Shown here: positions 3,459-56,073 of the stretch, piece after piece | How the letters are laid out: the number at the start of each line of letters is the position of its first letter | How positions within the stretch are numbered: the stretch's first letter is position 1 | Origin: Thermoplasmata archaeon | GTDB taxonomy: Archaea > Thermoplasmatota > Thermoplasmata > Lutacidiplasmatales > UBA184 | Reading direction: 5' to 3' | Assembly (NCBI GenBank): GCA_050011355.1 | Contig: JBEKJG010000001.1 | Span: 6,875 to 70,874, forward strand | Length of the DNA: 64,000 bases | Position numbers and translations under genes: made by a program | Notes under the pieces: model-generated | Database searches by the model: none | What the model was told of the DNA's origin: nothing | Seen by the model: the letters and a program-made list of their open reading frames with translations, nothing else

Positions 3459-3863
3459 CTACATCGGCGGGTTGTTCTGCCAGACCATCAGGAGGTTCCC
3501 TTCGGTGTCCTTGAAGAAGGCCGCCGCTCCAAACGGTTCGTAGGCGATGGGGCCGTCAATCCGCGTGTCCGGGCCGAGGCGCTGAGCCCGCTGAAACTTG
3601 ACGCCCTTCTGCTTAAGTCCCTTCACAAAGCTCTTGATGTTCGTGGTCAGGATGGTGGAGTAGGCCAGGGTTCGCTTCTCGCGCTTCTGGGGCGCGATCA
3701 GCCAAACCCAGTCGCCGCCGAGCTGGATGGCGGCCCAACCGTCCTTCATGTCCCCCTCGCCTCGGGTTCGGAGCTTTGCGCCCAGGGACTTGGTGTAGAA
3801 CTTGAGCGCACGGTCCATGTTCTTGATCGGCATCAATGTCGCCACACGCACTTTGGAAACCAT
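3459..3863 (-). CDS. VOC/glyoxalase-bleomycin-resistance family protein
   Basis: ATG at 3863 inside ORF 3459..4088. MVSKVRVATLMPIKNMDRALKFYTKSLGAKL...FFKDTEGNLLMVWQ is the typical beta-alpha-beta-beta-beta VOC signature, at about 134 aa. Confidence 0.7.
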   Translation of the reverse strand: MVSKVRVATLMPIKNMDRALKFYTKSLGAKLRTRGEGDMKDGWAAIQLGGDWVWLIAPQKREKRTLAYSTILTTNIKSFVKGLKQKGVKFQRAQRLGPDTRIDGPIAYEPFGAAAFFKDTEGNLLMVWQNNPPM

Positions 3864-4179
3864 TCTTCCCACTCCTCGCGGCCCCCCTCCCCCGGGGGGG
3901 CTATCCGCGCCCACGAGCGGGCAGGATATCAGGCTTCGCGGAGCCGGTCTCGTGGCACGCGCCTCCGTGGGGTCCGGCAACGGATGGGGGGCCTCATTTG
4001 GGAAGCGCGAAGAGAGTCGTGCGGGGCCTTTGAAGAAGGACAAACAACTCGCGCCCGGTCCGGAAGACGTGGCCACGGCGCGGAACACGATTCCCTACCG
4101 CGCGGAGTGCGGAATTCTCCCGCTGGGTTCGCCAAGGGACTGAGCCCGGCAATTCCGGCCGGGCAAGACTCCCCATACC

Positions 4180-4185
4180 CTTAAG
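4180..4185 (+). promoter_or_regulatory. TATA-like box (CTTAAG) upstream of the YVTN surface-protein gene
   Basis: An isolated AT-rich hexamer in GC-rich DNA, about 35 nt upstream of the ATG at 4218. It is the same TTAAG(G) core seen upstream of other genes here. Confidence 0.3.
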
Positions 4186-4217
4186 CAAGGTTGGACGGAT
4201 GGCGCGCGGGTTTCCGA

Positions 4218-7046
4218 ATGAGCGTCAGCAGCCGGCCCGGCTTCCCGAACGGCACGTTCGGGTGGCTGGTCATTGTCGTGGTATGTGGTCTCACCGTGAT
4301 CTCGGCCGTTGGCGTTGGTATCGGGGGTGAGGCGGGCCATTCGCCTTTCGGGGGGCCGCGCACCGCCCACGGCGTGACCTCTGCGGCGCACGGAAAAGGG
4401 CAAGCCCCGACCGCCTCCGCTACCGCGCCCTCCCACTGCCAGGGCGGGTCTGCGCACGGAGGATGTGAGGCGTCCCCCGCTTCCTCCTTCATTCCGTTTG
4501 TCGAGAAGACCTTCGTGGAGGCCAACGGCACGAGCGTCCCCGGGAACTTCCTCGCGGCCAACGGTCTCGAGCCGAAGGACGTGGCCTACGTCAGCGCGAA
4601 CGGCATGATCTATTCGGTGGACTACGGCTCCGCCAGCTTGAGCATCATCAACCCGGCCACCAACAAGGTCGTCGGCGGCATTCAACTGGCGTTCGGCCTT
4701 TCGGCGGTTACCTACGATCCGGCCCTCGGCGAACTGTTCGTTTCCGATGGAGTGGGGGTAGTCGTCGTCAACGTGACCACGAACACCGTGGTGACCAACA
4801 TCACTACCCAAGACGGAGCGTGGGGCGTGGCGTACGACCCTGTGACCCACACGGTCTACGTCGCCGACTACGACACCGCCAACGTGAGCGTCATCAGCAC
4901 CGCAACAAACTCCGTGACCGCCACCGTGCCGGTGGGCCCATATCCGGTAGGAGTCACCTACGACTCCGGGCAGGGGGAGATCTTCGTGGGGGACATCGGC
5001 CCGAGCGCCCCCGGTGTGACCATCATCAACGCCACCACCAACGAGGTCGTCGACACGGTGTACCTGGGCATGGACCCAGACTACGTCCTCTACGACCCCC
5101 TGGACGGTGACGTCTACGTCGCGAACCTGTACACCATCACGGTTCTGAACGGCACCACCGACGCGGTGGTCGTGAACTTCACGATGAACGGCTTCGCGGG
5201 GGAGTTCACGTTCGACAGCGGGAAGGGCGAGATCTTCGCCTCGATCAGTACCGGGAACCTGAGCATCTTCGACGCCGCGTCCAATGCCCTCCTGGGCAAC
5301 GTCAGTCTCGGCTCGGCGACCGCGACCGGGTTCGGCGGTTTGGCGTACGACGGCGCCCAAGGCGAGATCTTCGCCACGGGGCAGGTCTTCACCGTACAGG
5401 TCGTCTCCGACACCACCGACACCGTGGTCGCCAACGTGACCGTCGGGTTCACGCCCTGGGCGACGGCCTTCGACTCGGCGAAGAATGAACTGTTCGTCAC
5501 CGGATGGCAATACTCGAACACCGTCCAAGTCCTCTCCACGGTGAGCGACCAGATCGTCGCCAACGTCACCGCGGGGGCCAACCCGTACGAGGCGGTCTAC
5601 GATTCCGGGCGGGGCGAGGTCTGGGTCGCGAACTCGGGCTCCGACTCGATCAGCGTGATCAACGACACGAACGACAGTGTGGTCGCCACGATTTCCGCCT
5701 TCCCGGGTCAGAATGCGATGGCCTACGATGCGGCCGACGGCGAGATCCTGATCGTGAACGCGTTCGGGGGAGAGGTCACCGCGATCAACGACACGAACTT
5801 CACCGTGAGCGCCTCGACCACCGCGGTGCTCGACCCGTACGCCCTGGCGTACGATGGCGGCCGCGGTCAGATCTTCGTCTCGAGCTACGGCAGCTCGAAC
5901 GTCACCGTCCTCAATGCCGCGACCCTCGCGTTCGTGGCCAACATCACGTTACCCGCACCGGCGTACCTCCTGGGGTACGACAACGGTGCGGGCGAGGTGT
6001 TCGCCGCGACCGGCTTTGGACTCGTCCGGAACATCACGACCATCTCCGATGCCACGGACTCCGTCGTGGGCTCCGTGCGGGTCAGCACCACCCAGGGCGG
6101 GTTCGCCTACGACCCCATGACCGGAGAAGAATTCGCGACCGATTCGTTCGTCGGGGATGGGCGCATCACGGCCAACGTCTCCGTCCTCTCCGACACGACC
6201 AACACGATCGTGGCCAACGTATCGGTCGGGAGTTATCCCGCGGGGGTCTCGTTCGACGCGGCGACGGATCAGATGTTCGTGGCCAACTACGAACAGGGAA
6301 CGATCTCGGTCATCGCCGAGGAACCGATCTCCACGGTCACGTTCTCCGAAACGGGGCTGAAGTCGGGCACCACGTGGTCCGTCACCTTGAACGGCACGAA
6401 GCAGGTCTCGTCCGGCTCGTCCATCGTCTTCGACCAGGCGAACGGCACGGTCTCGTTCACGGTAGGCGCGGTTGCCGGGTACACGGCGAACCCGACCTCG
6501 GGGATGGTCACCGTCGCGGGCGTCGACCTCACAAGAACGATACAGTTCACCGCGTCGGCGAGCGTGACCCCCCCGACCTACCCCGTGACCTTCACCGAGG
6601 GCGGACTACCCTCGGGGACCTCCTGGTCCGTCACGCTGAATGGGACTCCTCAGAGCTCGACCTCCGCGTCGATGGTCTTCGATGTGGCGAACGGTACGCT
6701 CTCCTACACCGTCGGAGCGGTCTCCGGGTATACGATCGGGCAGGCCTCCGGAACGATCACCGTGGCCGGCCACTCGGTGTCGGAAACGGTCCAGTTCACC
6801 TCGACCGGCGGCGCCCCACCGACGGGGAAGAACAACAGTACGTCCTCCGCCTCGGTGCTGGGCCTACCTCCGGTGGAGGGGTATCTCCTGATCGCCCTGA
6901 TCATCGTGGTTCTCGCCATCCTTGCGGCGGTCGCGATCTGGTCGCGCAATCGGAAGAAGGTGGCCCCCAATCCCCCCTCCGCAGCGGACCCGTCCAACGC
7001 GCCGGCGCCACCCCCGGGCGCGGGTGGCCCGCCGCCCTCGCCGTAG
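4218..7046 (+). CDS. large cell-surface protein: signal/TM segment, about 15 or more YVTN-type beta-propeller repeats, two beta-sandwich modules, TM anchor, Pro-rich tail
   Basis: A recurring ~40-aa unit such as YVADYDTANVSVISTATNSVTATVPVGPYPVGVTYDSGQGEIFV (YVTN family pattern) and many NxS/T sequons. The C-terminal helix LLIALIIVVLAILAAVAIW is followed by SRNRKK. ATG at 4218; the listed TTG at 4191 is also possible. Confidence 0.85.
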   Translation: MSVSSRPGFPNGTFGWLVIVVVCGLTVISAVGVGIGGEAGHSPFGGPRTAHGVTSAAHGKGQAPTASATAPSHCQGGSAHGGCEASPASSFIPFVEKTFVEANGTSVPGNFLAANGLEPKDVAYVSANGMIYSVDYGSASLSIINPATNKVVGGIQLAFGLSAVTYDPALGELFVSDGVGVVVVNVTTNTVVTNITTQDGAWGVAYDPVTHTVYVADYDTANVSVISTATNSVTATVPVGPYPVGVTYDSGQGEIFVGDIGPSAPGVTIINATTNEVVDTVYLGMDPDYVLYDPLDGDVYVANLYTITVLNGTTDAVVVNFTMNGFAGEFTFDSGKGEIFASISTGNLSIFDAASNALLGNVSLGSATATGFGGLAYDGAQGEIFATGQVFTVQVVSDTTDTVVANVTVGFTPWATAFDSAKNELFVTGWQYSNTVQVLSTVSDQIVANVTAGANPYEAVYDSGRGEVWVANSGSDSISVINDTNDSVVATISAFPGQNAMAYDAADGEILIVNAFGGEVTAINDTNFTVSASTTAVLDPYALAYDGGRGQIFVSSYGSSNVTVLNAATLAFVANITLPAPAYLLGYDNGAGEVFAATGFGLVRNITTISDATDSVVGSVRVSTTQGGFAYDPMTGEEFATDSFVGDGRITANVSVLSDTTNTIVANVSVGSYPAGVSFDAATDQMFVANYEQGTISVIAEEPISTVTFSETGLKSGTTWSVTLNGTKQVSSGSSIVFDQANGTVSFTVGAVAGYTANPTSGMVTVAGVDLTRTIQFTASASVTPPTYPVTFTEGGLPSGTSWSVTLNGTPQSSTSASMVFDVANGTLSYTVGAVSGYTIGQASGTITVAGHSVSETVQFTSTGGAPPTGKNNSTSSASVLGLPPVEGYLLIALIIVVLAILAAVAIWSRNRKKVAPNPPSAADPSNAPAPPPGAGGPPPSP
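6327..6806 (+). repeat. tandem duplication of a ~80-aa protein module (TFxExGLxSGTxWSVTLNGT...NGTxSxTVGAVxGYT...G.xTVAG...QFT)
   Basis: Module 1 spans about 6327-6556 and module 2 about 6576-6806. They align residue by residue (VTFSETGLKSGTTWSVTLNGT / VTFTEGGLPSGTSWSVTLNGT). A third copy lies in the partial gene at about 40-270. Confidence 0.75.
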
Positions 7047-45641: not shown

Positions 45642-46564
45642 ACGAGCGGACGGTCGCGACCGGGCTGTTCCTTCTCCCCTTCTTCTACGTCGCGGCGCGG
45701 GTGCTCTCCCTCTTCCCGGTCGGCGACCTCGGGGTCTTCTTCGCCTTCGGCACCTGCGTCGCGATCGCGCTCATCCTCGGACTCGGGGGCTCCACGGGCC
45801 AGCTCGTCGCCGTCGCGCTGGACATCCTTCTGGTCGTGCTCGTCGTCGCCGCGCTCGTCGCCGCGACGACGTTCGCCGGCCTCGCGAGCCAGCTCACCGC
45901 GGGGGTCCTGGTCGGGCTCCCCTTCCTGGTCGCCGCCCTCTCCTGGCGCGAACGGTCCGGGCTCGCGCACCGGACGGTGGCGCTCGGCGTGGCGATCACC
46001 GCTGCGACCGCGCTGCTGGCCGCCCGGGCCTCCGTGCTCGGAAGCTCGCTCCCGGCGTCCCCGACCGATTTCGTCCAGGCGTTCTTCACGACCAACCTGA
46101 CGCAGCTGCAGGGGCTGGGCACGATCGCGAACGGGCTGGCCGAACCCAACCTCCCGCTCCGGGCGGTCTTCGACCCGACGTTCGCCGCACTGTGCGCCCT
46201 GGCGGCGGGAGGGGTGCTCCTCCTGGTGCTGCGGCCCCGCTCCGGTACGGAGGAGAAGCTCCCGACGGCCACGACCCTCGGGCGGAGCACCCCGGCTCCG
46301 AGATCCGAGGAGCTCGTGCCGTTCTCCGAGGCGCAGCGCCGGGCCTTCGAGAGCCGCTCTCCCGACGAGCCTCCCACGGGTTCCTGGCCCCCGGGGCTGG
46401 GCTCAGTGGTCCTCGCGGCGCTCGCGAGCGCCGGGTTCATCGCGGTCGCCTTCGAGAGCCCGTTCTACGCGCCGATGGTCGTCGCGGTCGGTGTCGCCGC
46501 CGTGCTGCTCGGGATCGGGCTCCTGACCTATCGGGGCTCCACCGGGCGCCGTCTCCGCAGCTAG
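45638..46564 (+). CDS. polytopic membrane protein, family unassigned (last gene of the MoxR cluster)
   Basis: The ATG at 45638 overlaps the DUF58 stop (ATGA). About 7-8 hydrophobic helices, including two in the last 50 aa. Confidence 0.65.
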   Translation: MNERTVATGLFLLPFFYVAARVLSLFPVGDLGVFFAFGTCVAIALILGLGGSTGQLVAVALDILLVVLVVAALVAATTFAGLASQLTAGVLVGLPFLVAALSWRERSGLAHRTVALGVAITAATALLAARASVLGSSLPASPTDFVQAFFTTNLTQLQGLGTIANGLAEPNLPLRAVFDPTFAALCALAAGGVLLLVLRPRSGTEEKLPTATTLGRSTPAPRSEELVPFSEAQRRAFESRSPDEPPTGSWPPGLGSVVLAALASAGFIAVAFESPFYAPMVVAVGVAAVLLGIGLLTYRGSTGRRLRS

Positions 46565-49306
46565 CGGCGCACGCTGGCCCGAGGACTTGGTCTCGCCCTT
46601 GGGGGGACGCTCCGGTCGGAGGCGACCCCAGAACCCTGCCCGGCGGGAACGGCCCGCCGGCGGCGCCGCCGGTACGGGCACCTCCGGCACCGGCGCGGCC
46701 GGTGCCCGGAGGATCGTGAGATAGACCGCCGCAAGGACCAGCGCGACCCCCGGAAGGAGGAGGAGCGGCCATACGGACGTGGCGTCGGGCGGCAGCAGGG
46801 CGAGGTTGTTCTGTCCTCCCGGGGATGGGCCGGAGTGGGCCCGGGTGAGGTTGATCGCGTACCTCGGGAGCACCTCTCCAGCCGAGAGCGCGAGGGTCGA
46901 CTGGTTCGTGTCGTACCCGGTCGCCGACGCGATGATCTCGTAGGTTCCTGCCGAGAGCGACGAGAAGTTCGCCCACCCCTGCGTGTCGGAGAGCAGGGTC
47001 CCGATGCTTACGAGCACGACGCTCGCGCTCCCGATCGGCTGGTGGCTGGCGTTGTCGAGAATGAGGGAGTGGATCGCGCCCTCGGGCACGGGGGTCAGCG
47101 CCACGGTGAGCGAGTCGAGGATCCCGGGTTGCAGCCACTGCGGCGGAACGGTCCGATTCTCTTGGAACCCCGGAGCCCATGCGGTGAGGGTGTAGTTCCC
47201 GGCCAGGAACGGGGTGAGCAGGACCCCCCTCGCGGCGGACTCCGAGAACTTCGCCGGCGAATCGACCACGGGCGGGGTCACGGTGAAGTTCAGTTGGGCC
47301 GAGGAGACCTGCTGCAGCGTCTGCGCGCTCACGACCGTGAGGTCGAGGTCCCCGGGAGGGGCCGACCGGAGCTCGATCGTCGCGGGGGCCACCCCCGTCG
47401 GCGGGACGAGCACGTCGGTCGTGTTCGGACCGAAGTAGGGCGCCGTCGCGGTCAGGAGCTCGCTGCCCAGGTCGGTCGTCGAGACGTTCAGCTCTCCGGT
47501 CGGCCCGCTCAATCCGAGGAGGTCGCTGTTGAGCAGCACGGAGGCGTTCTGCAGGCGGACCACGGTCCCGTTCGGTAGCTCGCCGAGCACTCGGATCTCG
47601 AGGAGGGTCAGCGGGGTCAGCACCAGGCGCTCCACGACCGTCTGGCCCGGGCCGAAATTGCCCGCGACGGAGGCGGTGTGGAACCCCGGGGCCCAGGCCG
47701 TGGCCGTGCCCTCGAACGCGGGTACGCTCGAGTAGTTGGCCCAGCCGTACTGGTCCGTCATGAGTCCGGGGGTCACGGGGCGATCCCCTACCGTGACGTT
47801 CACGAGGGCCCCGACGAACGGGACCCCGCTCGAGAGGGCCACGTGGACTTCGACCGCGGCCGGGGCTACCCCCGACAAGAGCACCGAGAACACGGTCGAC
47901 TGGCCCGGCGGCAGCCAGAGCGATTCGATGAACGTTTGGAACCCCGCCGCCGAGACGTTGAGTGTGATCTCCTCTGAGGGGAGCCCGGTGGTGTTCGAGT
48001 ATCCTTGCGCATTGGTGATCCCGCTCGATACCACTCCCGTCCGGACGACCGCGTACTCGATCGGGACGGCACCGGAGGCGGCTTCGACCCGAACGGAGAG
48101 CGAGGCGGGCGATGCGAGGCGCCACGTACCGTTGAACAGGTTCCCCGCGGCACTCCCGCCGCTCATGAGCAGCGTCTCGTTGCCGTAGACGTCGAACCAG
48201 GCGGCCGAGGCGCCGTACCGCGCGTCGGGAGCCCCAGCGGCCTGCTGGGTCGACCAGGAATTCGAGAGCGGTAGGAAGATCGTCGTGTCCCCATAGACCG
48301 TCGACCCGTCGGTCCCGCCGAACAGCACATCGCCCTGGAGGAACGGGTCGTACACCCAGACCGACTCCATCCGCGGGGCCGGGACGGTCCCGCCGCCGGG
48401 TTGCAGCACGGCCCAGTCCGCGGTGAGCGGGCTGAACTGCCAGACGCGGTCGGAGCACGGGTAGCAACCACCGAACAGTTCGAACGTCTGCGTCGAAGGG
48501 TCCCACGTCATTCCCGCCCCGTAGACCGCGGGCGGACCGGTGCCCGATGGGACCGTCACGCGGCTCCACACGTCGGTGGAGAGGTTGAACTCCCAGGTGT
48601 CCGAGAAGGTCACCTCACCCGTCCCCTGATAGTCGGGGTCCGACCCTCCGAACAGGAGCCCGACCCCCAGGGTTGGGTCGATCGAGAACGCGGCGTCCTG
48701 CCGTGGCGCGGGCGCGACGGGTCCCGTGACGTTCCTCCAGGTCCCCGAGGAGAAATTGAACAGCCACGTATCATTGGCCGAGAGCCCGGTCCCCGCGTTC
48801 GTCTCACCCCCGAAGAGTACCGCTTCGCCGGTGGCGGCATCGCTCGCGAACGCGAAACCTGCGCGCGCAGACGGGACCGCGCCCGGGGGTTCGGCCAGTG
48901 CCGTCCAGGTATCGGACGCCTCGTTGTACTCGAGCGTCGAGTTCGTGAGACCCGTCGCGGTGTCCCCTCCGAACTGGACGGCCAGGGCGAGGGACGAATC
49001 GGCCACCATGCCGGCGCCGGTGACGTTCACCGGATAGCGGTCGAACAGCGAGGTCCATGTCAGCAGCGAGGTCGAGTTCTCTGGCCCCAACGACGAGCTT
49101 CGGGGGGCCGACGGGCACCCGGCTGAGCACGCCCTGGCCGAACGCTCGACTTCCGTGACCAGCCTTCCTATCGAGGGAGGCGGCCCCGGGTGGGCCGTCG
49201 ATAGGCCCGCAAGCAGCAGGGAGGCAAGGAGCACGAGAATGAGCGCGGTGGGGAGGCGGGGGACCGTTGCGCTCACCGACTCACCTACCCCGACGCCGGT
49301 ACCCAA
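46403..49306 (-). CDS. large surface protein: signal peptide, Kelch-type beta-propeller, several CarboxypepD_reg/Ig-like beta-sandwich domains, TM anchor, Pro-rich tail
   Basis: Kelch-like blades (…AVLFGGETNAG…NDTWLFNFSSGTWRNV…; …LLFGGSDPD…SDTWEFNLSTDVWSRV…), then repeated units such as ...GYSNTTGLP..ITLNVSAAGFQT..., then the helix WPLLLLPGVALVLAAVYLTIL. Start at TTG 49306 or GTG 49276. Confidence 0.8.
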   Translation of the reverse strand: MGTGVGVGESVSATVPRLPTALILVLLASLLLAGLSTAHPGPPPSIGRLVTEVERSARACSAGCPSAPRSSSLGPENSTSLLTWTSLFDRYPVNVTGAGMVADSSLALAVQFGGDTATGLTNSTLEYNEASDTWTALAEPPGAVPSARAGFAFASDAATGEAVLFGGETNAGTGLSANDTWLFNFSSGTWRNVTGPVAPAPRQDAAFSIDPTLGVGLLFGGSDPDYQGTGEVTFSDTWEFNLSTDVWSRVTVPSGTGPPAVYGAGMTWDPSTQTFELFGGCYPCSDRVWQFSPLTADWAVLQPGGGTVPAPRMESVWVYDPFLQGDVLFGGTDGSTVYGDTTIFLPLSNSWSTQQAAGAPDARYGASAAWFDVYGNETLLMSGGSAAGNLFNGTWRLASPASLSVRVEAASGAVPIEYAVVRTGVVSSGITNAQGYSNTTGLPSEEITLNVSAAGFQTFIESLWLPPGQSTVFSVLLSGVAPAAVEVHVALSSGVPFVGALVNVTVGDRPVTPGLMTDQYGWANYSSVPAFEGTATAWAPGFHTASVAGNFGPGQTVVERLVLTPLTLLEIRVLGELPNGTVVRLQNASVLLNSDLLGLSGPTGELNVSTTDLGSELLTATAPYFGPNTTDVLVPPTGVAPATIELRSAPPGDLDLTVVSAQTLQQVSSAQLNFTVTPPVVDSPAKFSESAARGVLLTPFLAGNYTLTAWAPGFQENRTVPPQWLQPGILDSLTVALTPVPEGAIHSLILDNASHQPIGSASVVLVSIGTLLSDTQGWANFSSLSAGTYEIIASATGYDTNQSTLALSAGEVLPRYAINLTRAHSGPSPGGQNNLALLPPDATSVWPLLLLPGVALVLAAVYLTILRAPAAPVPEVPVPAAPPAGRSRRAGFWGRLRPERPPKGETKSSGQRAPLAAETAPGGAPIGQEPDPEQHGGDTDRDDHRRVERALEGDRDEPGARERREDH

Positions 49307-49644
49307 CGTTCGGCGTGCCTCCGTCTAGCCGATGCCTCTACATTGAGTTTGGCGACCCAAATTCCGACCCTCCGAGAGCCCGAAAGCACGTGCGGGCCGC
49401 AGGCGACCGACTCCCGTTCGGGTCGACGACCGTTCACCCGCCTCACCTTACGGCACGGGCCGCGTGGACGGGTATCTGTTCGTAGCACCGGAACGTTCAC
49501 GGTTCGGAAACACAGCCTCCGTCCCGGGAGACTCGCCCTGGCTCCCAGTGGCCCTAATGCGGGTCCGCGGGCTCGGCGGGGAGTGAGCAGGCCGCGGCCC
49601 CAACCCCGTCCTCAGACCGGATCGCGGCTTCTCGATCGCGGGCG

Positions 49645-50838
49645 GTGTCGCCGCCACCCATGACCCGGAGACTGACCGGCCTGCCGTTGCGCCTGATGGA
49701 GTATCCGGCGGAGACGGTCACGAACCGGCGATTCGCTGGAACGGAGATCTCCCGGCTGGACCGATTCTACCTGCCGCCGGCGCTCACCACTCTCTACGAC
49801 CCGGATCCGCTCGCGACGCGGGAGTTCATCGAGGACGACAACCGGGCCGCGATTCTCCCGGATCCGATCGCCACCCTCGACGGGAGGGAGTTCTTCCTTT
49901 CGGTCAAGGGAGTCGGGTCGACCATCGACCCGTACTCTTGGAAGCCGCTCGACCGGTCGTACGCCTCCGAGCTGGTCTCCGACCCGGACGTCGGGGCTCG
50001 GCTCCAACGGGCCCCGACGGATTCTCCCGACCGGATCATCACGGGAGAGCTGTGGTTGCGGGGTTCCCCGTACGGTGGACAGGGCTGGGAGCACGCCTCC
50101 GCCGCGCTCGCCGTCTCGGAACGCGCGAACCTCACGGACCTGGCCGGCTTCCGGATCGCACCCGTGGTCAAGGTCGCCTACCTTCCGGCCGAGCTCGAGG
50201 AGCGGCTCCGGAAGATCTACTGGTACCGACGGTATCCCGGGCGGATGGTCCAGGAGCTCCGGCTCGTCCCCTCGAACGTCCGAGTGTACTTCCACGCCCG
50301 GACGACCGTAGGGAACGACATCGGTCACGTGTTCGACCAGTTTGCGATCGCGACCCCGCAGGCTGCGCTGGCCTTCGAGGTGAACTTCCTCCGGACCACA
50401 GTGCCCATGCTCACGCTGTTCGCGCGCACCCTGACCCACGGGGAAGGCGACGGTCCGTACCGGGGACTCGACTTCCACGACGTATGGCTGGACAAGGACG
50501 CGGTGATCGCACCGGACGGCGCGGTGTTCTTCGTTGACCTCGAGGGGATCGAGGAGGTCGCCGTTCCGCGGTCGGAGGTGGTCGAGCGGATCGAGGACCA
50601 GATCTACCGAACCCTCTACGAGCTCACGTTCGCCTACGAACAGATCGACCGGGAACGTCTCCGTCGATTTGGCGGCTCGAGCCCCCGACGGCACCGGTTC
50701 GAGACCCTCCTGCGCGAAGCCTTGCGGGACGACCGGTTCGTCCGGCTCGTTCCCGGAACCGATTCCTTCGAGCTGGAGATTCGCAACAACTGTCAAGAGG
50801 AGGCGCTGTGTACGCGGTTCCGGATGGTCGACGGTTGA
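49645..50838 (+). CDS. hypothetical soluble protein with protein-kinase-like motif order (first gene of an uncharacterised operon)
   Basis: Protein-like composition across 397 aa. Motifs FLSVKGVGST, GELWLRGSPYGGQG, LRLVPSNVRVYFHA, FHDVWLDKDAVIAPDGAVFFVDLEG. Start at GTG 49645 or ATG 49660/49696. Confidence 0.7.
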   Translation: MSPPPMTRRLTGLPLRLMEYPAETVTNRRFAGTEISRLDRFYLPPALTTLYDPDPLATREFIEDDNRAAILPDPIATLDGREFFLSVKGVGSTIDPYSWKPLDRSYASELVSDPDVGARLQRAPTDSPDRIITGELWLRGSPYGGQGWEHASAALAVSERANLTDLAGFRIAPVVKVAYLPAELEERLRKIYWYRRYPGRMVQELRLVPSNVRVYFHARTTVGNDIGHVFDQFAIATPQAALAFEVNFLRTTVPMLTLFARTLTHGEGDGPYRGLDFHDVWLDKDAVIAPDGAVFFVDLEGIEEVAVPRSEVVERIEDQIYRTLYELTFAYEQIDRERLRRFGGSSPRRHRFETLLREALRDDRFVRLVPGTDSFELEIRNNCQEEALCTRFRMVDG

Positions 50839-50839
50839 A

Positions 50840-52363
50840 ATGACGAACTGCCAGGAGATCTACAACTTCCTGCTGTGCGTCAGCCGCCGCGCGGGGGTAC
50901 CGGCCATCTCCGACGCGGACCTGGCGACCCTTCAGCAGATGAACCTCATCCGACAGCTGACCGCGGACGAGTTCGCGCAGCTCACCCAGCAGGCCCATGA
51001 ACTCTACGACTCCCAGGTGGCCCTCTCGGCCGAGCAGCGCCAACGCCAGGCGCTCGCGGTCCAGGCCCAGGAGGACGACCGAAAGACCCACTCGATCCTG
51101 TTCCACCTCGAAGGTAGGGAGAAGCAGGAGGCCCTCCTCCGGCGGGAAGCCGGGGACCAGGCCTCGCTCAAGGCCACGACGGACGACCTGGCGGGCCGGA
51201 TCCGGGCCGTCGATCAGATGGTGGTCAACCAGTCCCTCCTGGGGACGATGTCCGCCTACGGGAACGGGTTCGTCGGGCTCACAAGCCTCGGCGCCGCCGC
51301 GTTGCGAGACCTCGGCGTCCGCCTGTACCGGGTCGCGGACCGTCCGTTCGACCAGTACTGGCAGCAGAGCCAGGCCGTGACGGCCGAACTGAACACCATC
51401 GCCGGCCGCAGCAGCCAGTACATCGCCGGCCTCGTTCCGCGTCTCGGCGGGGTCGACCGGTCCTACCTCTGGTCGATCGCCGTCGGCCTGGCGAAGCGCG
51501 ACGGGGATGTCGCGACGGTCGGGTCGACGTTCCTCGACGCGTACACGCGCCTCGCTCCGCTCACGGGCAACGACGAGAACCGACTGATGTCGGCGGAGAT
51601 GATCTCCTCCCTCCCCCGGACCCCGGAACAGAGCCTCCCGCTGCTCACCCAGCTCGAGCACGACGTCCGGAAGGCCGGTGTTCCCAAGGAGTCCTCCCTC
51701 GGCGTGGCGTCGATCCTCCTCCTCGGCCAGCGGGCCGACGGCACCTTCGCGACCGCCAACCTCTCGACCTTCCTCCGCGTCACGAAGTCGTACGAGTCGG
51801 CCGGTCTGCTGGCGATCGTGAACCGCCCGTTCGACGAGCTCGGTCAGAAGTTCAGCCAGTTGCGCGCGATGTTCGGCGGATGGGGATTCCAGCCCTCCGA
51901 GGACGTCGAACTCGCCTCCTCCTACCTCGCGGTCTCCGACCTTCCCGTCGAGGGGATCGGCACGAAGCTCGCCATCATCACGCGAGGGATGGCGACGTAC
52001 CTGCAGTATCCGCTGGTCGCGTCCGCGATCCTCGCCTCCATCCCGGTCCTCGAGGCGAACGACACGCTCAACCTGCTCGAACAGGGGTACGGGATCATCG
52101 CCCGCACCGCCGGAGGGCTCACCCAGGCCGAGCTCATCTGCCTCGCCGTGCGCATGGTCCACGGGATCCGGGCGGAGACGATCACCGGAGTGGACACGAC
52201 GGCCACGGCGGCTCCCGCCCCGTCGGCCTCCTACTATGCCTACGGCCCCCGGTTCTTCTTCGTCCCGATCTTCGTCGCGCACGGGGCCTACTTCTCGACC
52301 TACAGCGGGCTGGGTGGCGCCCACCCGGGACACGCGCACTTCGTGGGCGGGTTTACCGGATGA
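50840..52363 (+). CDS. hypothetical 507-aa helical protein (coiled-coil N-terminal third; His/Gly/aromatic C-terminal tail)
   Basis: The ATG at 50840 lies 1 nt after the upstream TGA. The listed ORF start at 50534 is an off-frame overlap. Recurrent helical units; C-terminus YYAYGPRFFFVPIFVAHGAYFSTYSGLGGAHPGHAHFVGGFTG. Confidence 0.7.
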   Translation: MTNCQEIYNFLLCVSRRAGVPAISDADLATLQQMNLIRQLTADEFAQLTQQAHELYDSQVALSAEQRQRQALAVQAQEDDRKTHSILFHLEGREKQEALLRREAGDQASLKATTDDLAGRIRAVDQMVVNQSLLGTMSAYGNGFVGLTSLGAAALRDLGVRLYRVADRPFDQYWQQSQAVTAELNTIAGRSSQYIAGLVPRLGGVDRSYLWSIAVGLAKRDGDVATVGSTFLDAYTRLAPLTGNDENRLMSAEMISSLPRTPEQSLPLLTQLEHDVRKAGVPKESSLGVASILLLGQRADGTFATANLSTFLRVTKSYESAGLLAIVNRPFDELGQKFSQLRAMFGGWGFQPSEDVELASSYLAVSDLPVEGIGTKLAIITRGMATYLQYPLVASAILASIPVLEANDTLNLLEQGYGIIARTAGGLTQAELICLAVRMVHGIRAETITGVDTTATAAPAPSASYYAYGPRFFFVPIFVAHGAYFSTYSGLGGAHPGHAHFVGGFTG

Positions 52364-53406
52364 ACTCCCTCCGGCTGCTGCTCGCGGTCGCGCTGGTCGT
52401 CCTGATCCTCCCGGCGGCTGGGGCGGCCGGCGATGGCCACTACGTGCCCAAGGCCGGCGACCAGTTCCATTACGCCGAGACGATCTTTCTGAACGGGGGG
52501 ATCGGCAACTACACCGGCTACACCGAGAGCACGTACCTGAACGGCACGCTCGGTGTCACCGCGGTCGCGGCCAACGGGACGGAGTCGGCTTCCTACTCGA
52601 GCTCCGGGCGGTGGAGCAACAACACCGGCTCGAGTCAATCGCTCGTCTCCTCGGGGACGTTCACCTTCTCCGCCACCTCCTTCCTCTACGTCCAGGGCAC
52701 CGACAACCAGACGGGCTACACGAACCCGTACGTCTGGTTCTACATGGACAACACGCTCGCCGACGGGGCGACGTTCTACCTCCTGAACACGCAGATGTCG
52801 GTCACGTCGACCGACGCGAGCTACGCCCTCGCCAGCACACCGGGGAAGTACGTCTCGACGATCGAGGCGCAGGGCACCGGGTCGTTCCAGCGGGATGACG
52901 AGTATGGCGTCTTCACGGCCAGCTACACCTGGACCTCCTACTTCGACCCCGCGACCGGGTACGTCGTCGGCTACCTCTACACCGAGCAGGACCGGGATTC
53001 CTCCGGGGATGGGTTCACGATGACCGACCTGCTCTACGTCACGAGCACGAGCTATCCGCTCACCTCCGCCGCCGCCCCGTCCACCCCCTCGTCGAGCTCC
53101 CCGTCGTTCCTGCCGTACCTCGTGGTCGTCGTCATCGTCCTCGTGCTGATCGCGGTCCTCGTAGTCGCGCTTCGATCCCGCTCCCGGCGCACGACGCCGC
53201 TCCCGCGACATTCCGCGGGGGGCGCGGTGAGCTATGCCCCCCCTCCGGGGTCGGTGCCGCCGCCCATCGGTCTCATTCCGAACCAGCAGCCACCCGTCCC
53301 CCAGGTCGTCCTCCGGGAGACGGTCAAGGTCAACTGCCGCTACTGCGGCACGCTCATCGATACGACCGACTCCGTGTGCCCCAACTGCGGGGCACCACGG
53401 ACCTAG
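52360..53406 (+). CDS. hypothetical surface protein: signal peptide, S/T/Y/N-rich beta domain, S/P linker, TM helix, Pro-rich cytoplasmic tail ending in a zinc ribbon
   Basis: The ATG at 52360 overlaps the upstream stop (ATGA). MNSLRLLLAVALVVLILPAAGAAG; sequons NYT, NGT, NNT, NQT; helix YLVVVVIVLVLIAVLVVAL followed by RSRSRR; C-terminus CRYCGTLIDTTDSVCPNCG. Confidence 0.7.
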   Translation: MNSLRLLLAVALVVLILPAAGAAGDGHYVPKAGDQFHYAETIFLNGGIGNYTGYTESTYLNGTLGVTAVAANGTESASYSSSGRWSNNTGSSQSLVSSGTFTFSATSFLYVQGTDNQTGYTNPYVWFYMDNTLADGATFYLLNTQMSVTSTDASYALASTPGKYVSTIEAQGTGSFQRDDEYGVFTASYTWTSYFDPATGYVVGYLYTEQDRDSSGDGFTMTDLLYVTSTSYPLTSAAAPSTPSSSSPSFLPYLVVVVIVLVLIAVLVVALRSRSRRTTPLPRHSAGGAVSYAPPPGSVPPPIGLIPNQQPPVPQVVLRETVKVNCRYCGTLIDTTDSVCPNCGAPRT

Positions 53407-53422: not shown

Positions 53423-54232
53423 TCAGGGTCGCACCGTGAGATAGACCGGGCCCCAGACCCGCATCCCGCCGGCGACCGAGATCGCACGGGAGGCGACGTT
53501 GGTCTGCGCGATCTCCGTGAGCACCCGCTGCGCGCCGGCGTGCCGGGCCCAGAGCATCCGGGCATGCCAGAGGTCGGCACCGACCCCCATGCGTCGGAAC
53601 CCCGGCCGCACGGAGAGTGAGTGCAAGCGTCCCCACTGGCCCACCACCGAGACCCACCCCGCCGCCACGAGGCCCGCCTCGAGTTCGACGACGAGGCATT
53701 TCTCCCCCTCCCGTTCGACGGGGCTGAGCCATCGTTCGTCCACGGCCCCGTTCACTTCCTGCAGCAGGCGGAGGAGGGCCGGCCGGTCGTCCTCGCGGGC
53801 CGCCCGGACCGGATGGCGATAGCCGTGCGGGCCCACGGAGGCCCACCCGTCCGTGACGAGGACGTCGTACACCTCGGCTGTTGGGACCAGCGGAAACTCG
53901 GAGAACACCCCGATCCCGCGGCGGGAGCGGGAGAACGCCTCCGCCAGGGCCAGGTCCCTCGTGAAGACGGAGCCGATGCGCTCGACCGGGTTGAAGAGGA
54001 AGAGCCCGTCGACGCGGCCGCCCACCGTCGAGACCAGGACCTCTCCCTCACATCGGAGGGTGTCGGCGATGAAGTGCGGGAGGAACGGGTCGAAGAATTC
54101 GGAGAGGTGCCCGAGCTCCTGCGGTGCAAGGTGGTCGTCGCGGGAGAGCGAATGGACCGACGGGGGCAATTCTATCGGTGGCTCCCCGGCGGGGGAGACG
54201 AGCTGGGAGGAACAGGGGGTAATGGGATCCAT
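53423..54232 (-). CDS. GNAT-family acetyltransferase (C-terminal GNAT domain, unassigned N-terminal half)
   Basis: ...VRAAREDDRPALLRLLQEV...LVVELEAGLVAAGWVSV...LSVRPGFRRMGVGADLW...GAQRVLTEIAQTNVASRAI. Confidence 0.7.
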   Translation of the reverse strand: MDPITPCSSQLVSPAGEPPIELPPSVHSLSRDDHLAPQELGHLSEFFDPFLPHFIADTLRCEGEVLVSTVGGRVDGLFLFNPVERIGSVFTRDLALAEAFSRSRRGIGVFSEFPLVPTAEVYDVLVTDGWASVGPHGYRHPVRAAREDDRPALLRLLQEVNGAVDERWLSPVEREGEKCLVVELEAGLVAAGWVSVVGQWGRLHSLSVRPGFRRMGVGADLWHARMLWARHAGAQRVLTEIAQTNVASRAISVAGGMRVWGPVYLTVRP

Positions 54233-54267: not shown

Positions 54268-55701
54268 CTACAGGTGCCAGGTCGGGCCGCCGTATCCGAC
54301 CGGAAGCGGCGCGGGTTCGGCCGCGCCGAACGGGTCCGGGCGCGGCGTAGGCGCGCGACCCCGCTTCTTCGCGACGTACGCGTCGATGGCGTTCGCGGCG
54401 GCCGTGCCGGCGGACATGGCGTAGACCACCGACTTTCCTCCGGCGGCGAACACGCCCTCGACGTCGGTCATCCAGTCCTCCTTGGCCCCCTGGGGCCAGG
54501 GATGGGTGGCGAGCGAGAGGTTCAGCTCGGTGGGGAGGGTGCCGAGGTCGGCCTTCTCACCGACCGCGACGATGACGGTATCGCAGACGACCGTCTCCTC
54601 GGACCCCGGCACCGGCACGGAGGTCGGCCGACCGTGAGCGTCCGGGGGTCCGGCCCGCATCGTCTGGAGCACGATCCCGGTCACCTGGGCGGTGCCGAGG
54701 ATCTGGACGGGCGCCCGCTCGAAGAGGAACTGGACGCCCTCGATCTCGCCCCCGCCGACCTCCTCGTCGTCGGCCGGCATATCGTCCTTCGTCTTCCGAT
54801 AGACGACCGTGACGGTACCGCCCTCGTCCATCCGGACGGCCGAGCGCGCGGCGTCCATCGCCACGTCGCCTCCGCCGATCACGACGACCTTCCGCCCCTT
54901 CCGGCCCAGCAGGACCTCCGGTCCCTTGTTCACCGCCAGGAGGAACTGGATGGCGGAGAAGACCCCGGGCAGGTGCTCGCCGGGAATGCCCATGGCCCGG
55001 GGGTCCGAAGCCCCGATCGCCACGAAGACGGCGAGGTACCCCTCCTTCAGCAGGGTCTCGGGGGTGAAGCCGTCCCCGGCCTTCGCCGCGAGACGGAACG
55101 TCACGTCGAGGTTCTTGAACCGGGCGAGGTCGGTGTCGAGCTCGTTCCCGTCGAGGTGGTACTTCGGGATCGTGTCCATCTGACCTCCGAGGAACGGCTG
55201 CTCCTCGAAGACGGTGAGGGAGTATCCCCGCAGCGCGAGCTCCCAGGCGGCCATGAGGCCCGTCGGACCGCCCCCGATCACGGCAATCCGCTCGTTCTTC
55301 GGGGCGCTCGGCACGTAGAGGAGGTCCGAGTTCCCGTGCTCCAGCGCGGCCCGCTTCAGGTGCCGGATGGCGATCGGGACGCCCTTGCCGCCCATCACGC
55401 AGTCCTCCTCGCAGTAGTGGTAGCAGGTCTTGCAGAGGACCGTGGCCAGGGGGTTGTCGCGGAGCGTGAGGACCGCCGCCTCGTCGAACTTGTCCTGGGC
55501 GATCAGCGTGAGGTATCCCCGGCAGTCCTGCGTTATCGGGCAGGCCTGCACGCAGAACGGCATCTGGCACTGGAGGCACCGGCGTGCCTCGAGGATCGCC
55601 TCCTCCTTGCTGTACGCGTGGAGGATCTCCCCGAACGTCGAGGCCCTCTCGTCCTTGGTCTCTTCCGGAATCGGGGTCCGGTGGTAGCGGGGTCCGCCCA
55701 T
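54268..55701 (-). CDS. glutamate synthase small-subunit-like NAD(P)H oxidoreductase (GltD/SudA family)
   Basis: ATG at 55701. N-terminal Fe-S region CLQCQMPFCVQACPITQDC. Dinucleotide folds IAVIGGGPTGLMAA and VVVIGGGDVAMDAA. No large-subunit gene lies adjacent. Confidence 0.85.
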   Translation of the reverse strand: MGGPRYHRTPIPEETKDERASTFGEILHAYSKEEAILEARRCLQCQMPFCVQACPITQDCRGYLTLIAQDKFDEAAVLTLRDNPLATVLCKTCYHYCEEDCVMGGKGVPIAIRHLKRAALEHGNSDLLYVPSAPKNERIAVIGGGPTGLMAAWELALRGYSLTVFEEQPFLGGQMDTIPKYHLDGNELDTDLARFKNLDVTFRLAAKAGDGFTPETLLKEGYLAVFVAIGASDPRAMGIPGEHLPGVFSAIQFLLAVNKGPEVLLGRKGRKVVVIGGGDVAMDAARSAVRMDEGGTVTVVYRKTKDDMPADDEEVGGGEIEGVQFLFERAPVQILGTAQVTGIVLQTMRAGPPDAHGRPTSVPVPGSEETVVCDTVIVAVGEKADLGTLPTELNLSLATHPWPQGAKEDWMTDVEGVFAAGGKSVVYAMSAGTAAANAIDAYVAKKRGRAPTPRPDPFGAAEPAPLPVGYGGPTWHL

Positions 55702-55800
55702 CGTCGTGCGTCCCGGTCGGAGCGCCGACCGTGACCTCGGGGCCACCTCGGCCGCCAGTATATCCTCGTCGCGTCGAAGGGGCTCGGACGGACGACGAGC

Positions 55801-56073
55801 TCAGGAAGGGGCCGCGGGTTCCCGGGTCCGGGGCGCCGTGAGGATGCGCGCGCCCTCCCCCTTGGCGACGTAGACGTGGAGCGTGTCGCAGGTCTTTCGG
55901 AAGTACGCGCCCCCGTCGTCCCCGAAGGTGGTCCGCAGTCGCTCCTCGATCTCGGGGTCGGTGAGCCCGGGCTCGACCTCGGGGGTGAACTGGCACTCGA
56001 AGACGAGGAACCGGTGTCCCTCGAGGTCGAAACGGGCCGACTCCGGCCGGCCGCAAAAGGGACAGCTCAGCAC
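55801..56073 (-). CDS. small hypothetical protein (90 aa) with N-terminal CPFCG motif
   Basis: GTG start with G/C-ending codons. VLSCPFCGRPESARFDLEGHRFLVFECQFTPEVEPGLTDPEIEERL... Confidence 0.5.
   Translation of the reverse strand: MLSCPFCGRPESARFDLEGHRFLVFECQFTPEVEPGLTDPEIEERLRTTFGDDGGAYFRKTCDTLHVYVAKGEGARILTAPRTREPAAPS

Follow-up and report, generated by a model that had tools for sequence, protein, structure and literature searches.

A putative protein-modification module of kinase-fold and GNAT enzymes in uncultured Thermoplasmata

What is encoded by three tightly packed genes that have no characterised counterpart, and are these genes the whole of the system to which they belong? The question is raised by positions 49,645 to 53,406 of a 64,000-nucleotide (nt) stretch of DNA from a Thermoplasmata archaeon (GenBank assembly GCA_050011355.1, contig JBEKJG010000001.1), referred to here as the window. 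An earlier note, made from the letters alone, had described there a three-gene operon for a kinase-like enzyme, a helical protein and a zinc-ribbon-tailed membrane protein, here called A, B and C. The order A>B>C proved to be conserved when gene neighbourhoods were compared, yet a convergent gene for a GNAT acetyltransferase had been missed, and the conserved unit has four parts: A, B, C and this GNAT gene. As the GNAT is fused to the ectodomain of C in other lineages, it is the most informative component of the unit. Statements on function throughout are drawn from sequence, fold and gene context.

The reality of the three genes is not in doubt. Their open reading frames (ORFs) were confirmed on the same strand in the ORF listing of the window, and a search of a 5.8-billion-protein collection at E ≤ 1e-3 returned 986 homologues of A, 335 of B and 527 of C. 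Among the matches listed, and besides one exact match for each window protein, these homologues are full-length at 51-78% identity; the taxon labels, where given, are 'Thermoplasmata archaeon' and the names are nearly all 'hypothetical protein'. Judged by these sequences, A, B and C are genuine conserved proteins. In a scan of one genome per GTDB species, a relative of A was found to be encoded in 236 genomes, the best 80 of which are all metagenome-assembled genomes (MAGs) of Thermoplasmata, Candidatus Lutacidiplasma silvani among them. When the window proteins were compared with the loci of their relatives by tblastn, A>B>C was found on one strand at every locus with sufficient contig, with identities to the window of 50-77% for A, 40-73% for B and 45-74% for C, and this order stays while the flanking genes vary. 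A GNAT homologue lies convergent directly after C in nearly all Lutacidiplasmatales-type loci. The species-level genomes with the module number at least 236, besides which it occurs on several hundred metagenome contigs; most belong to Lutacidiplasmatales-type Thermoplasmata from soil and peat. It is generally single-copy in each genome, vertically conserved across an archaeal order amid varied housekeeping genes. In the MAG YP4.bin112 two full A>B>C><GNAT copies were observed (L031 on JAKAVQ010000016 and L045 on JAKAVQ010000018), the A proteins of which are 62% and 59% identical to that of the window; these represent either a paralogous duplication or a mixed bin.

The view that none of the three products maps to a characterised family has also stood, Pfam, NCBIfam, PADLOC, PHROGs and the PDB being without a family-level match for A, B or C. 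The earlier note had named two outcomes that would speak against its operon, namely confident family matches for all three products and a lack of conserved co-occurrence, and in both cases the reverse was found. Literature searches found no description of such a module. A tightly coupled operon of unassigned function, with two kinds of enzyme known from some conflict systems (GNAT and kinase-fold), might suggest anti-virus defence, a toxin-antitoxin system or the cargo of a mobile element. This seems very improbable: PADLOC and PHROGs matches do not go beyond a generic acetyltransferase, PADLOC-DB has none for any of the three products, GC content stays even across the window (66-73%), conservation is vertical in housekeeping contexts, and no integrase or transposase is linked to the module.

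The gene junctions were read directly and are as had been claimed. The stop codon of A (TGA, 50836-50838) is separated by a 1-nt spacer from the ATG of B at 50840 (TGAaATG, 50836..50842, + strand), which is consistent with translational coupling of A and B, and the start of C overlaps the stop of B in an ATGA (52360..52363, +). Both junctions, like the gene order, recur in about 70 species-level Thermoplasmata genomes of the Lutacidiplasmatales type: of 73 species loci, 47 have exactly 1 nt between the stop of A and the start of B and the others have no more than 2 nt or an overlap, and the stop of B falls within ATGA or GTGA in 66 of 69. This packing of A, B and C far exceeds chance. In the window, A (49660..50838, +) is predicted to encode a soluble enzyme of 392 amino acids (aa), B (50840..52363, +) a 507-aa all-helical protein and C (52360..53406, +) a 348-aa bitopic membrane protein, and the GNAT gene (53423..54232, -; 269 aa) converges on C with 16 nt between the stops. 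An alternative GTG start for A exists at 49645. The homologues of A begin M-[KR]-L-x-G-x-P, which corresponds to ATG 49660, codon 6 of the GTG ORF, and hence A is probably 392 rather than 397 aa long; the gene-less region upstream, which is present as described, is then more likely to measure 353 nt than 338 nt. The long Arg/Pro/Gly-rich ORFs antisense to these genes (for example 50624..52339 on the minus strand, 571 aa) are shadow ORFs, as had been supposed, in a genome of 68-70% GC, which explains them.

The relationship between C and the GNAT is revealed by distant loci, drawn from the contigs of four distant relatives of A and from a metagenome scan with a distant-subfamily profile. At these loci a protein of approximately 550-600 aa is encoded ahead of A and a B-like gene, with stop and start codons that overlap or abut. 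In single-sequence phmmer comparisons, the N-terminal half of this protein matches residues ~7-279 of C, encompassing the anchor, the beta-rich domain and the transmembrane (TM) helix (E 1e-34 to 1e-6), and the C-terminal half matches residues 41-268 of the window GNAT (E 1e-27 to 1e-6). Among 169 loci, 73 have the split arrangement A>B>C><GNAT and 48 the fused arrangement CG>A>B, eight of the latter being incomplete; at a few (L162, L132) C and the GNAT gene are co-directional yet unfused, and these are intermediates. Since the fused proteins cover both C and the GNAT, the two are halves of one ancestral membrane protein. According to these alignments, the widespread form of the module is a three-gene operon in which an ectodomain-TM-GNAT fusion is followed by A and then B. 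In the lineage of the window, the same comparison indicates that the fusion gene was split, the GNAT half coming to lie on the opposite strand and C gaining a Pro-rich linker and a CxxC-x10-CxxC ribbon in its place. A B-like gene comes after A throughout the loci compared, including the distant ones, with a variant order at L136, where the B-like gene lies upstream of A (3701-7011) and is in two ORFs, probably through a frameshift. Among the fused-type loci only L085 is clearly archaeal, by its P0/L1/P1 ribosomal operon; an NCBIfam search of the genes flanking these loci (UvrA/B, PckA, PstS, S-layer-like) returned none diagnostic of taxonomy.

The architecture of C agrees with its description as a bitopic protein. 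By hydropathy, a signal or anchor segment (residues 1-26) and a TM helix (residues 244-276; 53089-53187, +) lie on either side of a beta-rich ectodomain (residues 27-243; 52438-53088, +), and a Pro-rich linker follows the second helix ahead of a CxxC...CxxC zinc ribbon (residues 323-346; 53326-53397, +). When tested against PF13248 and PF13240 the ribbon scored 24.9 bits with Zn_ribbon_3, for which the gathering threshold is 27; many homologues of C have a precomputed PF13248 match, and every C protein of the split type keeps C-x2-C-x10-C-x2-C. The ectodomain is a new domain, in which Y51, W126, R178, D180, Y182, G183, G200, E209, D211 and F219 are invariant in both C and the fused proteins. 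Sequence and profile searches of the PDB found no relative of the ectodomain, the fused proteins being matched by their GNAT half only, and Pfam and PDB profile searches detected no PASTA or other known sensor domain in it. The suggestion that the ectodomain is rich in glycosylation sequons fared less well, as its five N-x-S/T sites compare with 2.8 +/- 1.4 in composition-matched shuffles (P = 0.115), a weakly supported and non-significant excess.

The GNAT scores 37.3 bits with PF00583, against a gathering threshold of 20.7, and its acetyl-CoA motif R-R-M-G-V-G-A is intact within a core at residues 167-250 (53483-53734, -). The fused homologues score 44-47 bits with the same family, and a PDB profile search with the GNAT half gave GNAT matches down to E = 5.8e-10, the nearest solved relatives being phosphinothricin acetyltransferases and the protein N-alpha-acetyltransferases RimI, Naa30 and archaeal NAT. 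By these similarities it is an ordinary member of its superfamily. In some other split-type genomes the convergent gene is called much longer, at 562 aa in L003 (10582-12270, -) and, with an ORF that may reach 674 aa, in L160 (9700-11724, -); the extra N-terminal part has no match to the C profile. Basic residues follow the TM helix in both the split and the fused form, and a GNAT needs acetyl-CoA; it would follow that the GNAT or zinc-ribbon end is cytoplasmic and the beta-rich domain lies outside the cell.

There are consequently four parts linked genetically and, in most lineages, covalently, of which two are enzymes with intact active-site motifs, as far as the sequences can tell, and one spans the membrane. 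The reading favoured here, with some reserve, is that of a membrane-tethered protein-modification complex, in which A nucleotidylylates or phosphorylates, the GNAT acetylates, B serves as partner or substrate and C as sensor or anchor. The four products would assemble at the cytoplasmic face of the membrane, where C may hold the GNAT in place, covalently when fused and through the zinc ribbon when split. A would more probably transfer a nucleoside monophosphate (NMP) than a phosphate, using an active site resembling that of the AMPylase/UMPylase SelO/YdiU, plain phosphorylation also being possible, and the GNAT would acetylate a protein or amine with acetyl-CoA. The tail of B might be modified by, or docked to, the enzymes of the module, and through the conserved polar face of its ectodomain C could tie the complex to a ligand outside the cell or to a structure on the surface. 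The earlier suggestion of a module for trans-membrane signalling or surface modification is still a plausible one.

B is a component without detectable relatives. Its AlphaFold2 model (pLDDT 72.6) is all-helical and contains a long coiled-coil hairpin, both features having been anticipated from the letters. A small N-terminal helical domain (residues 1-41) is followed by this antiparallel hairpin (42-135) and a beta-hairpin in which L-T148-x-x-G151 is nearly invariant. Helical repeats make up residues 149-440, and the tail (444-507; 52169..52360, +; pLDDT <50) is unstructured. Foldseek gave no significant match for B, the repeat region being faintly like designed alpha/alpha toroids; Pfam, NCBIfam, PADLOC and PHROGs scans returned nothing, and Pfam searches of 28 diverse relatives found nothing consistent, only coiled-coil noise and two faint DUF4003 matches. 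Sequence and profile matches in the PDB were to coiled-coil proteins and are not meaningful relatives. An identity as a LanC, prenyltransferase or terpene cyclase was likewise rejected, since Pfam gives no signal and a conserved Cys/His zinc triad is lacking. Evolution is faster in B than in A, and the distant B-like proteins were joined to it by iterated hidden Markov model (HMM) searches over the fetched loci, hhalign being weak at E 9e-4 to 0.06.

What stands out in B is its end. The tail contains an aromatic stretch, FFFVPIFVAHGAYFSTY, then H495-P-G-H498-A-H500 (52322-52339) and the terminal Gly507 (52358-52360), and reads ...FFFVPIFVAHGAYFSTYSGLGGAHPGHAHFVGGFTG up to the stop codon. Terminal Gly is present in 211 of 212 distinct complete B-like tails, the exception being the first ORF of the split B gene at L136. 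H-P-x-H-x-H lies within the last 40 aa of 194 of these 212, at 4-17 aa from the end and preceded by an aromatic stretch with another conserved His, and the penultimate residue varies between V, T, G, Y, S and F. The last Gly is invariant whatever its distance from the motif, and this implies that the terminus itself is under selection; it could act in docking, bind a metal or be where chemistry takes place. A role of the tail as a TM anchor is ruled out in the window lineage (maximum KD19 1.1); some distant B subfamilies have a 20-aa hydrophobic run ahead of it. A proteasome-type HbYX motif fits some fused-type tails (V-Y-G) but not the G-F-T-G of the window, and would leave the invariance of the last residue unexplained. 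In the favoured reading B would be a dedicated partner, scaffold or substrate, the His/Tyr-rich, Gly-ending tail of which is the likeliest site of modification or docking.

A protein with a strictly selected extreme C-terminus, encoded beside an ATP-using enzyme, recalls the SAMP-UbaA, Pup-PafA and LysW-LysX systems. By this analogy, A might adenylate or phosphorylate the carboxylate of the terminal Gly of B, and the membrane-tethered GNAT-fold protein might move B or its tail to an amine of a lipid or lysine: a conjugation or lipidation with ubiquitin-, Atg8- or Pup-like logic, performed by unrelated folds and coupled to an extracellular sensor domain. The near-universal Gly at varying distances from the histidine motif speaks for such an activation, kinase-fold enzymes that form acyl-adenylates exist (SidJ, the synthetases discussed below), and amide bonds are formed by GNAT-fold enzymes. 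However, B ends in a single Gly after a His-rich motif and fails as a ubiquitin-like or sulfur-carrier protein, being 507 aa long and all-helical with an x-Gly end, not a beta-grasp of ~70-100 aa with Gly-Gly. The loci inspected contain no ThiF/MoeB-type gene in the module, which has no beta-grasp protein and no E1, ATP-grasp or glutamine-synthetase (GS)-fold enzyme. Moreover, a GNAT that takes a protein acyl-adenylate for its donor is not known, the conjugates are a prediction, and the terminal Gly is equally explicable as a docking or metal-site element. Activation of B through its C-terminus is hence improbable.

The identity of A bears on the chemistry of the favoured protein-modification complex. 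Its AlphaFold2 model is of good quality (pLDDT 87.8, pTM 0.89) and its Foldseek matches in the PDB and BFVD are almost exclusively kinase-fold proteins, in keeping with the kinase-like character ascribed to it: ACVR1 and other Ser/Thr kinases, YdiU/SelO (6iii, 6lna, 6eac), AcsD/DesD/IucA/DfoC, the ROP5 pseudokinase and giant-virus kinases. On the modelled fold, A is a very divergent member of the protein-kinase-like superfamily that founds a new family. An exhaustive HMM search with the A profile gave 129 clusters at 50% identity, with relatives down to 20-36% identity. Invariant across its subfamilies are N61, R62, K83, G84, G86, G139, P168, R190, Q198, R201, P204, S205, R208, D278, K279, D280, D286, G287 and D293. 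These include the N-lobe motif D-D-N61-R62 ... S-V-K83-G-V-G86 (49840..49914, +), and the catalytic-cleft motifs Q-E-x-R201-L-V-P-S-N-V-R208, D-V-W-L-D278-K279-D280 and F-V-D293-L-E-G (50260..50538, +). From the motifs and the model together, A is predicted to be an active enzyme. Pfam, NCBIfam, PADLOC and PHROGs scans of A gave no match, nor did Pfam for 48 diverse relatives, and the PDB sequence and profile matches were single chance ones to 6mtz (E 0.77) and 5evf (E 0.17), with no SelO chain among them.

Some further sequences resemble A in part. In P0480, a 2848-aa giant CARDB-repeat protein, six stretches match the N-lobe of the A profile (48-119; E = 5.5e-5), probably through a spurious similarity between beta-strand repeats. 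In the metagenome fragments P0392 and P0476 the C-terminal end of A runs on into the start of B in one frame without a stop (...FPAVDLDPITNCKDIY...); these apparent A-B fusions may be genuine, but are low-quality fragments with other signs of frameshift and were not relied upon.

Canonical kinases, represented by ACVR1, are the most numerous fold matches of A, with probabilities of 0.9-0.98, and an extracellular domain, a single TM helix, a cytoplasmic catalytic domain and a kinase-fold enzyme are all shared with bacterial PknB-like receptor Ser/Thr kinases and other one-component TM sensors. The module could on this basis be a conventional receptor-kinase signalling system, in which A is an ordinary Ser/Thr/Tyr kinase, C the sensor and B a transcription regulator with a winged-helix-like N-terminus (L-T-x-x-G), its N-terminal helices, beta-hairpin and T148/G151 resembling such a fold. 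Against this, A fails as a canonical protein kinase (PF00069/PF07714), having no Pkinase match in Pfam, no Gly-rich loop (no GxGxxG precedes K83) and neither HRD nor APE motifs. The catalytic loop reads D-V-W-L-D-K-D instead of HRDxxxxN, and only the fold and the 'DFG-like' Asp of D-L-E-G are in common, while the R-x6-R pair of A is foreign to canonical kinases. Nor is it the kinase-fold enzyme that is fused to the TM sensor, as in PknB-like proteins, but the acetyltransferase, and the C ectodomain is a new family. The winged helix of B is read from secondary structure, and Pfam and PDB searches gave it no support. Overall, conventional receptor-kinase signalling is distinctly unlikely.

Another group of fold matches suggests a biosynthetic or surface-modification pathway. 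AcsD, DesD, IucA and DfoC, which are NRPS-independent siderophore (NIS) synthetases, are among the best matches of A and have its highest query TM-scores (0.33-0.36), a partial likeness of fold. NIS synthetases combine a kinase-like core with ATP-dependent adenylation, as proposed here for A, and work with a GNAT to which they are genetically coupled (IucA/IucC with IucB; the DfoC fusion, PDB 5o7o). A might accordingly be an adenylating ligase, like the kinase-fold core of an NIS synthetase or SidJ, with the GNAT acylating a small molecule, lipid head group or glycan at the membrane, B a scaffold or carrier and the C ectodomain handling the product outside the cell. The membrane anchoring of the complex, and the small-molecule acetyltransferases among the closest solved relatives of the GNAT, such as phosphinothricin acetyltransferase, are compatible with this. 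However, A fails as an NIS synthetase (IucA_IucC, PF04183): no Pfam match to it or to FhuF is found, and at 392 aa A is ~200 aa shorter than the three-domain architecture of ~600 aa. Conservation around the module extends to no further genes for biosynthesis, transport or regulation, and genes for a hydroxylase, a decarboxylase or a transporter are absent from the cluster. The GNAT is membrane-tethered through an ectodomain, and pathways of this kind do not feature a conserved helical partner of 500 aa with a tail that is invariant. A biosynthetic role is considered unlikely.

With A failing every family-level test within the kinase-like superfamily, its closest neighbour by motifs is SelO, of a family that transfers AMP or UMP to Ser, Thr, Tyr or His of proteins. 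In Pseudomonas syringae SelO, ATP is bound flipped, with K113/E136 and R176/R183 holding its gamma-phosphate and N253/D262, nine residues apart, binding Mg2+ (PMC8097203). Besides sharing a kinase-like fold with YdiU/SelO, structures of which are among its top Foldseek matches, A has D-D/G-N-R 21 aa before x-K-G-x-G where Escherichia coli SelO has GDGR 20 aa before LKGAG, and its R201-x6-R208 'RLVPSNVR' resembles the E. coli 'RVAPSHLR' (R170/R177). The spacing from R208 to D280 of A is 72 aa, and that from R177 to N247 in E. coli is 70 aa. When the A profile was aligned by hhalign with a 9-sequence SelO alignment, the score was 28.8 (P = 0.009), compared with 15.2 for a reversed control and 16.7 +/- 2.1 (maximum 22.0) for 60 block-order shuffles. 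The alignment pairs K83, E130, R201 and R208 of A, all invariant or nearly so in a motif-level comparison, with K107, E130, R170 and R177 of E. coli SelO, and its confident core spans A 57-88 and SelO 82-112 (GDGR...LKGAG). The link is statistically suggestive only. Going by these motifs, A is a candidate SelO-type NMP transferase, which is more likely than its being a conventional kinase.

Several observations weigh against the modification complex as proposed. All Foldseek matches of A are weak, with E ~1e-3 at best and TM-scores of 0.2-0.37, every one below 0.4 (0.2-0.3 for 6iii, 6lna and 6eac), and canonical kinases and NIS synthetases match as well as SelO does. Pfam and NCBIfam found no SelO match (PF02696) for A or for 47 distant relatives, the HH probability against the 9-sequence SelO alignment is just 4.6%, and when the A profile was set against the single SelO of E. 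coli, hhalign gave no relevant alignment. The putative metal ligands D280/D293 are 13 residues apart in A and N247/D256 are nine apart in SelO, and Asp-Lys-Asp of A stands at the position of Asp-Asn in SelO. B might be a structural partner and nothing more, and its tail has no confident structure in the AlphaFold2 model. The specificity of the GNAT is not readable from its sequence, and both the substrate and the chemistry of the complex are predictions only.

The D280/D293 segment was left unaligned by hhalign. Further differences separate A from SelO: an insert of 25-50 aa follows the Lys motif, and the C-terminal domain is another one, without the regulatory Cys/Sec. In addition, the GNAT, the helical partner and the membrane protein that share the obligatory operon of A have no counterpart beside SelO. 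As a putative module of kinase-fold and GNAT enzymes for modification, the architecture is unprecedented. Such probability as is not taken up by the readings weighed above falls to something else.

Three protein families without a Pfam, NCBIfam or PDB counterpart are brought together at this locus: a putative kinase-fold enzyme with SelO-like motifs, a Gly-ending helical protein and a beta-rich ectodomain, all of them linked to a GNAT acetyltransferase by a fusion-fission event, in Lutacidiplasmatales-type Thermoplasmata, a group without a cultured representative. If A is an NMP transferase, no SelO-like enzyme before it would have had a dedicated set of genetically linked partners, and it would make substrates and regulation, still poorly defined for SelO/YdiU, tractable to study. 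A TM protein with an acetyltransferase as its cytoplasmic output domain would also be an unusual signalling architecture. The fusion evidence predicts that the tail of C binds the GNAT and that the tail of B enters the active site of A or of the GNAT.

Around the module, the gene-less region (49307..49659) between a Kelch-type gene and A presumably carries the promoter and 5' untranslated region of A; an Rfam scan found no RNA element in it, and just two short AT-rich patches are present (49337-49350 and 49473-49480). The Kelch-type gene and this shared divergent region had been associated with the operon. However, the gene and the region, like the GltD-like gene on the other side, adjoin the module only in the closest genome, which places all three outside the conserved unit. 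The Kelch-type gene (46403-49306, -) encodes a 967-aa surface protein from a TTG start, with many N-x-S/T sites, a C-terminal TM helix and a basic, acidic tail. Pfam matches to Kelch/beta-propeller and CarboxypepD_reg are found in the homologue from the closest genome. The GltD-like protein (54268-55746, -; 492 aa) is 85% identical to its closest relative and has Fer4_20 and Pyr_redox_2 by homology to the L001/L002 gene. Beyond it lies a 90-aa ORF (55801-56073, -) that starts MLSCPFCGRPESARF... and contains a CxxC knuckle, and ORFs of 91 and 101 aa occupy the same relative position in L001/L002. Upstream of the module in the closest relative, at 1-5400 in L001/L002, is a cluster encoding a MoxR-type AAA ATPase, DUF58 and DUF4129, and a GvpD-like P-loop ATPase is encoded further downstream.

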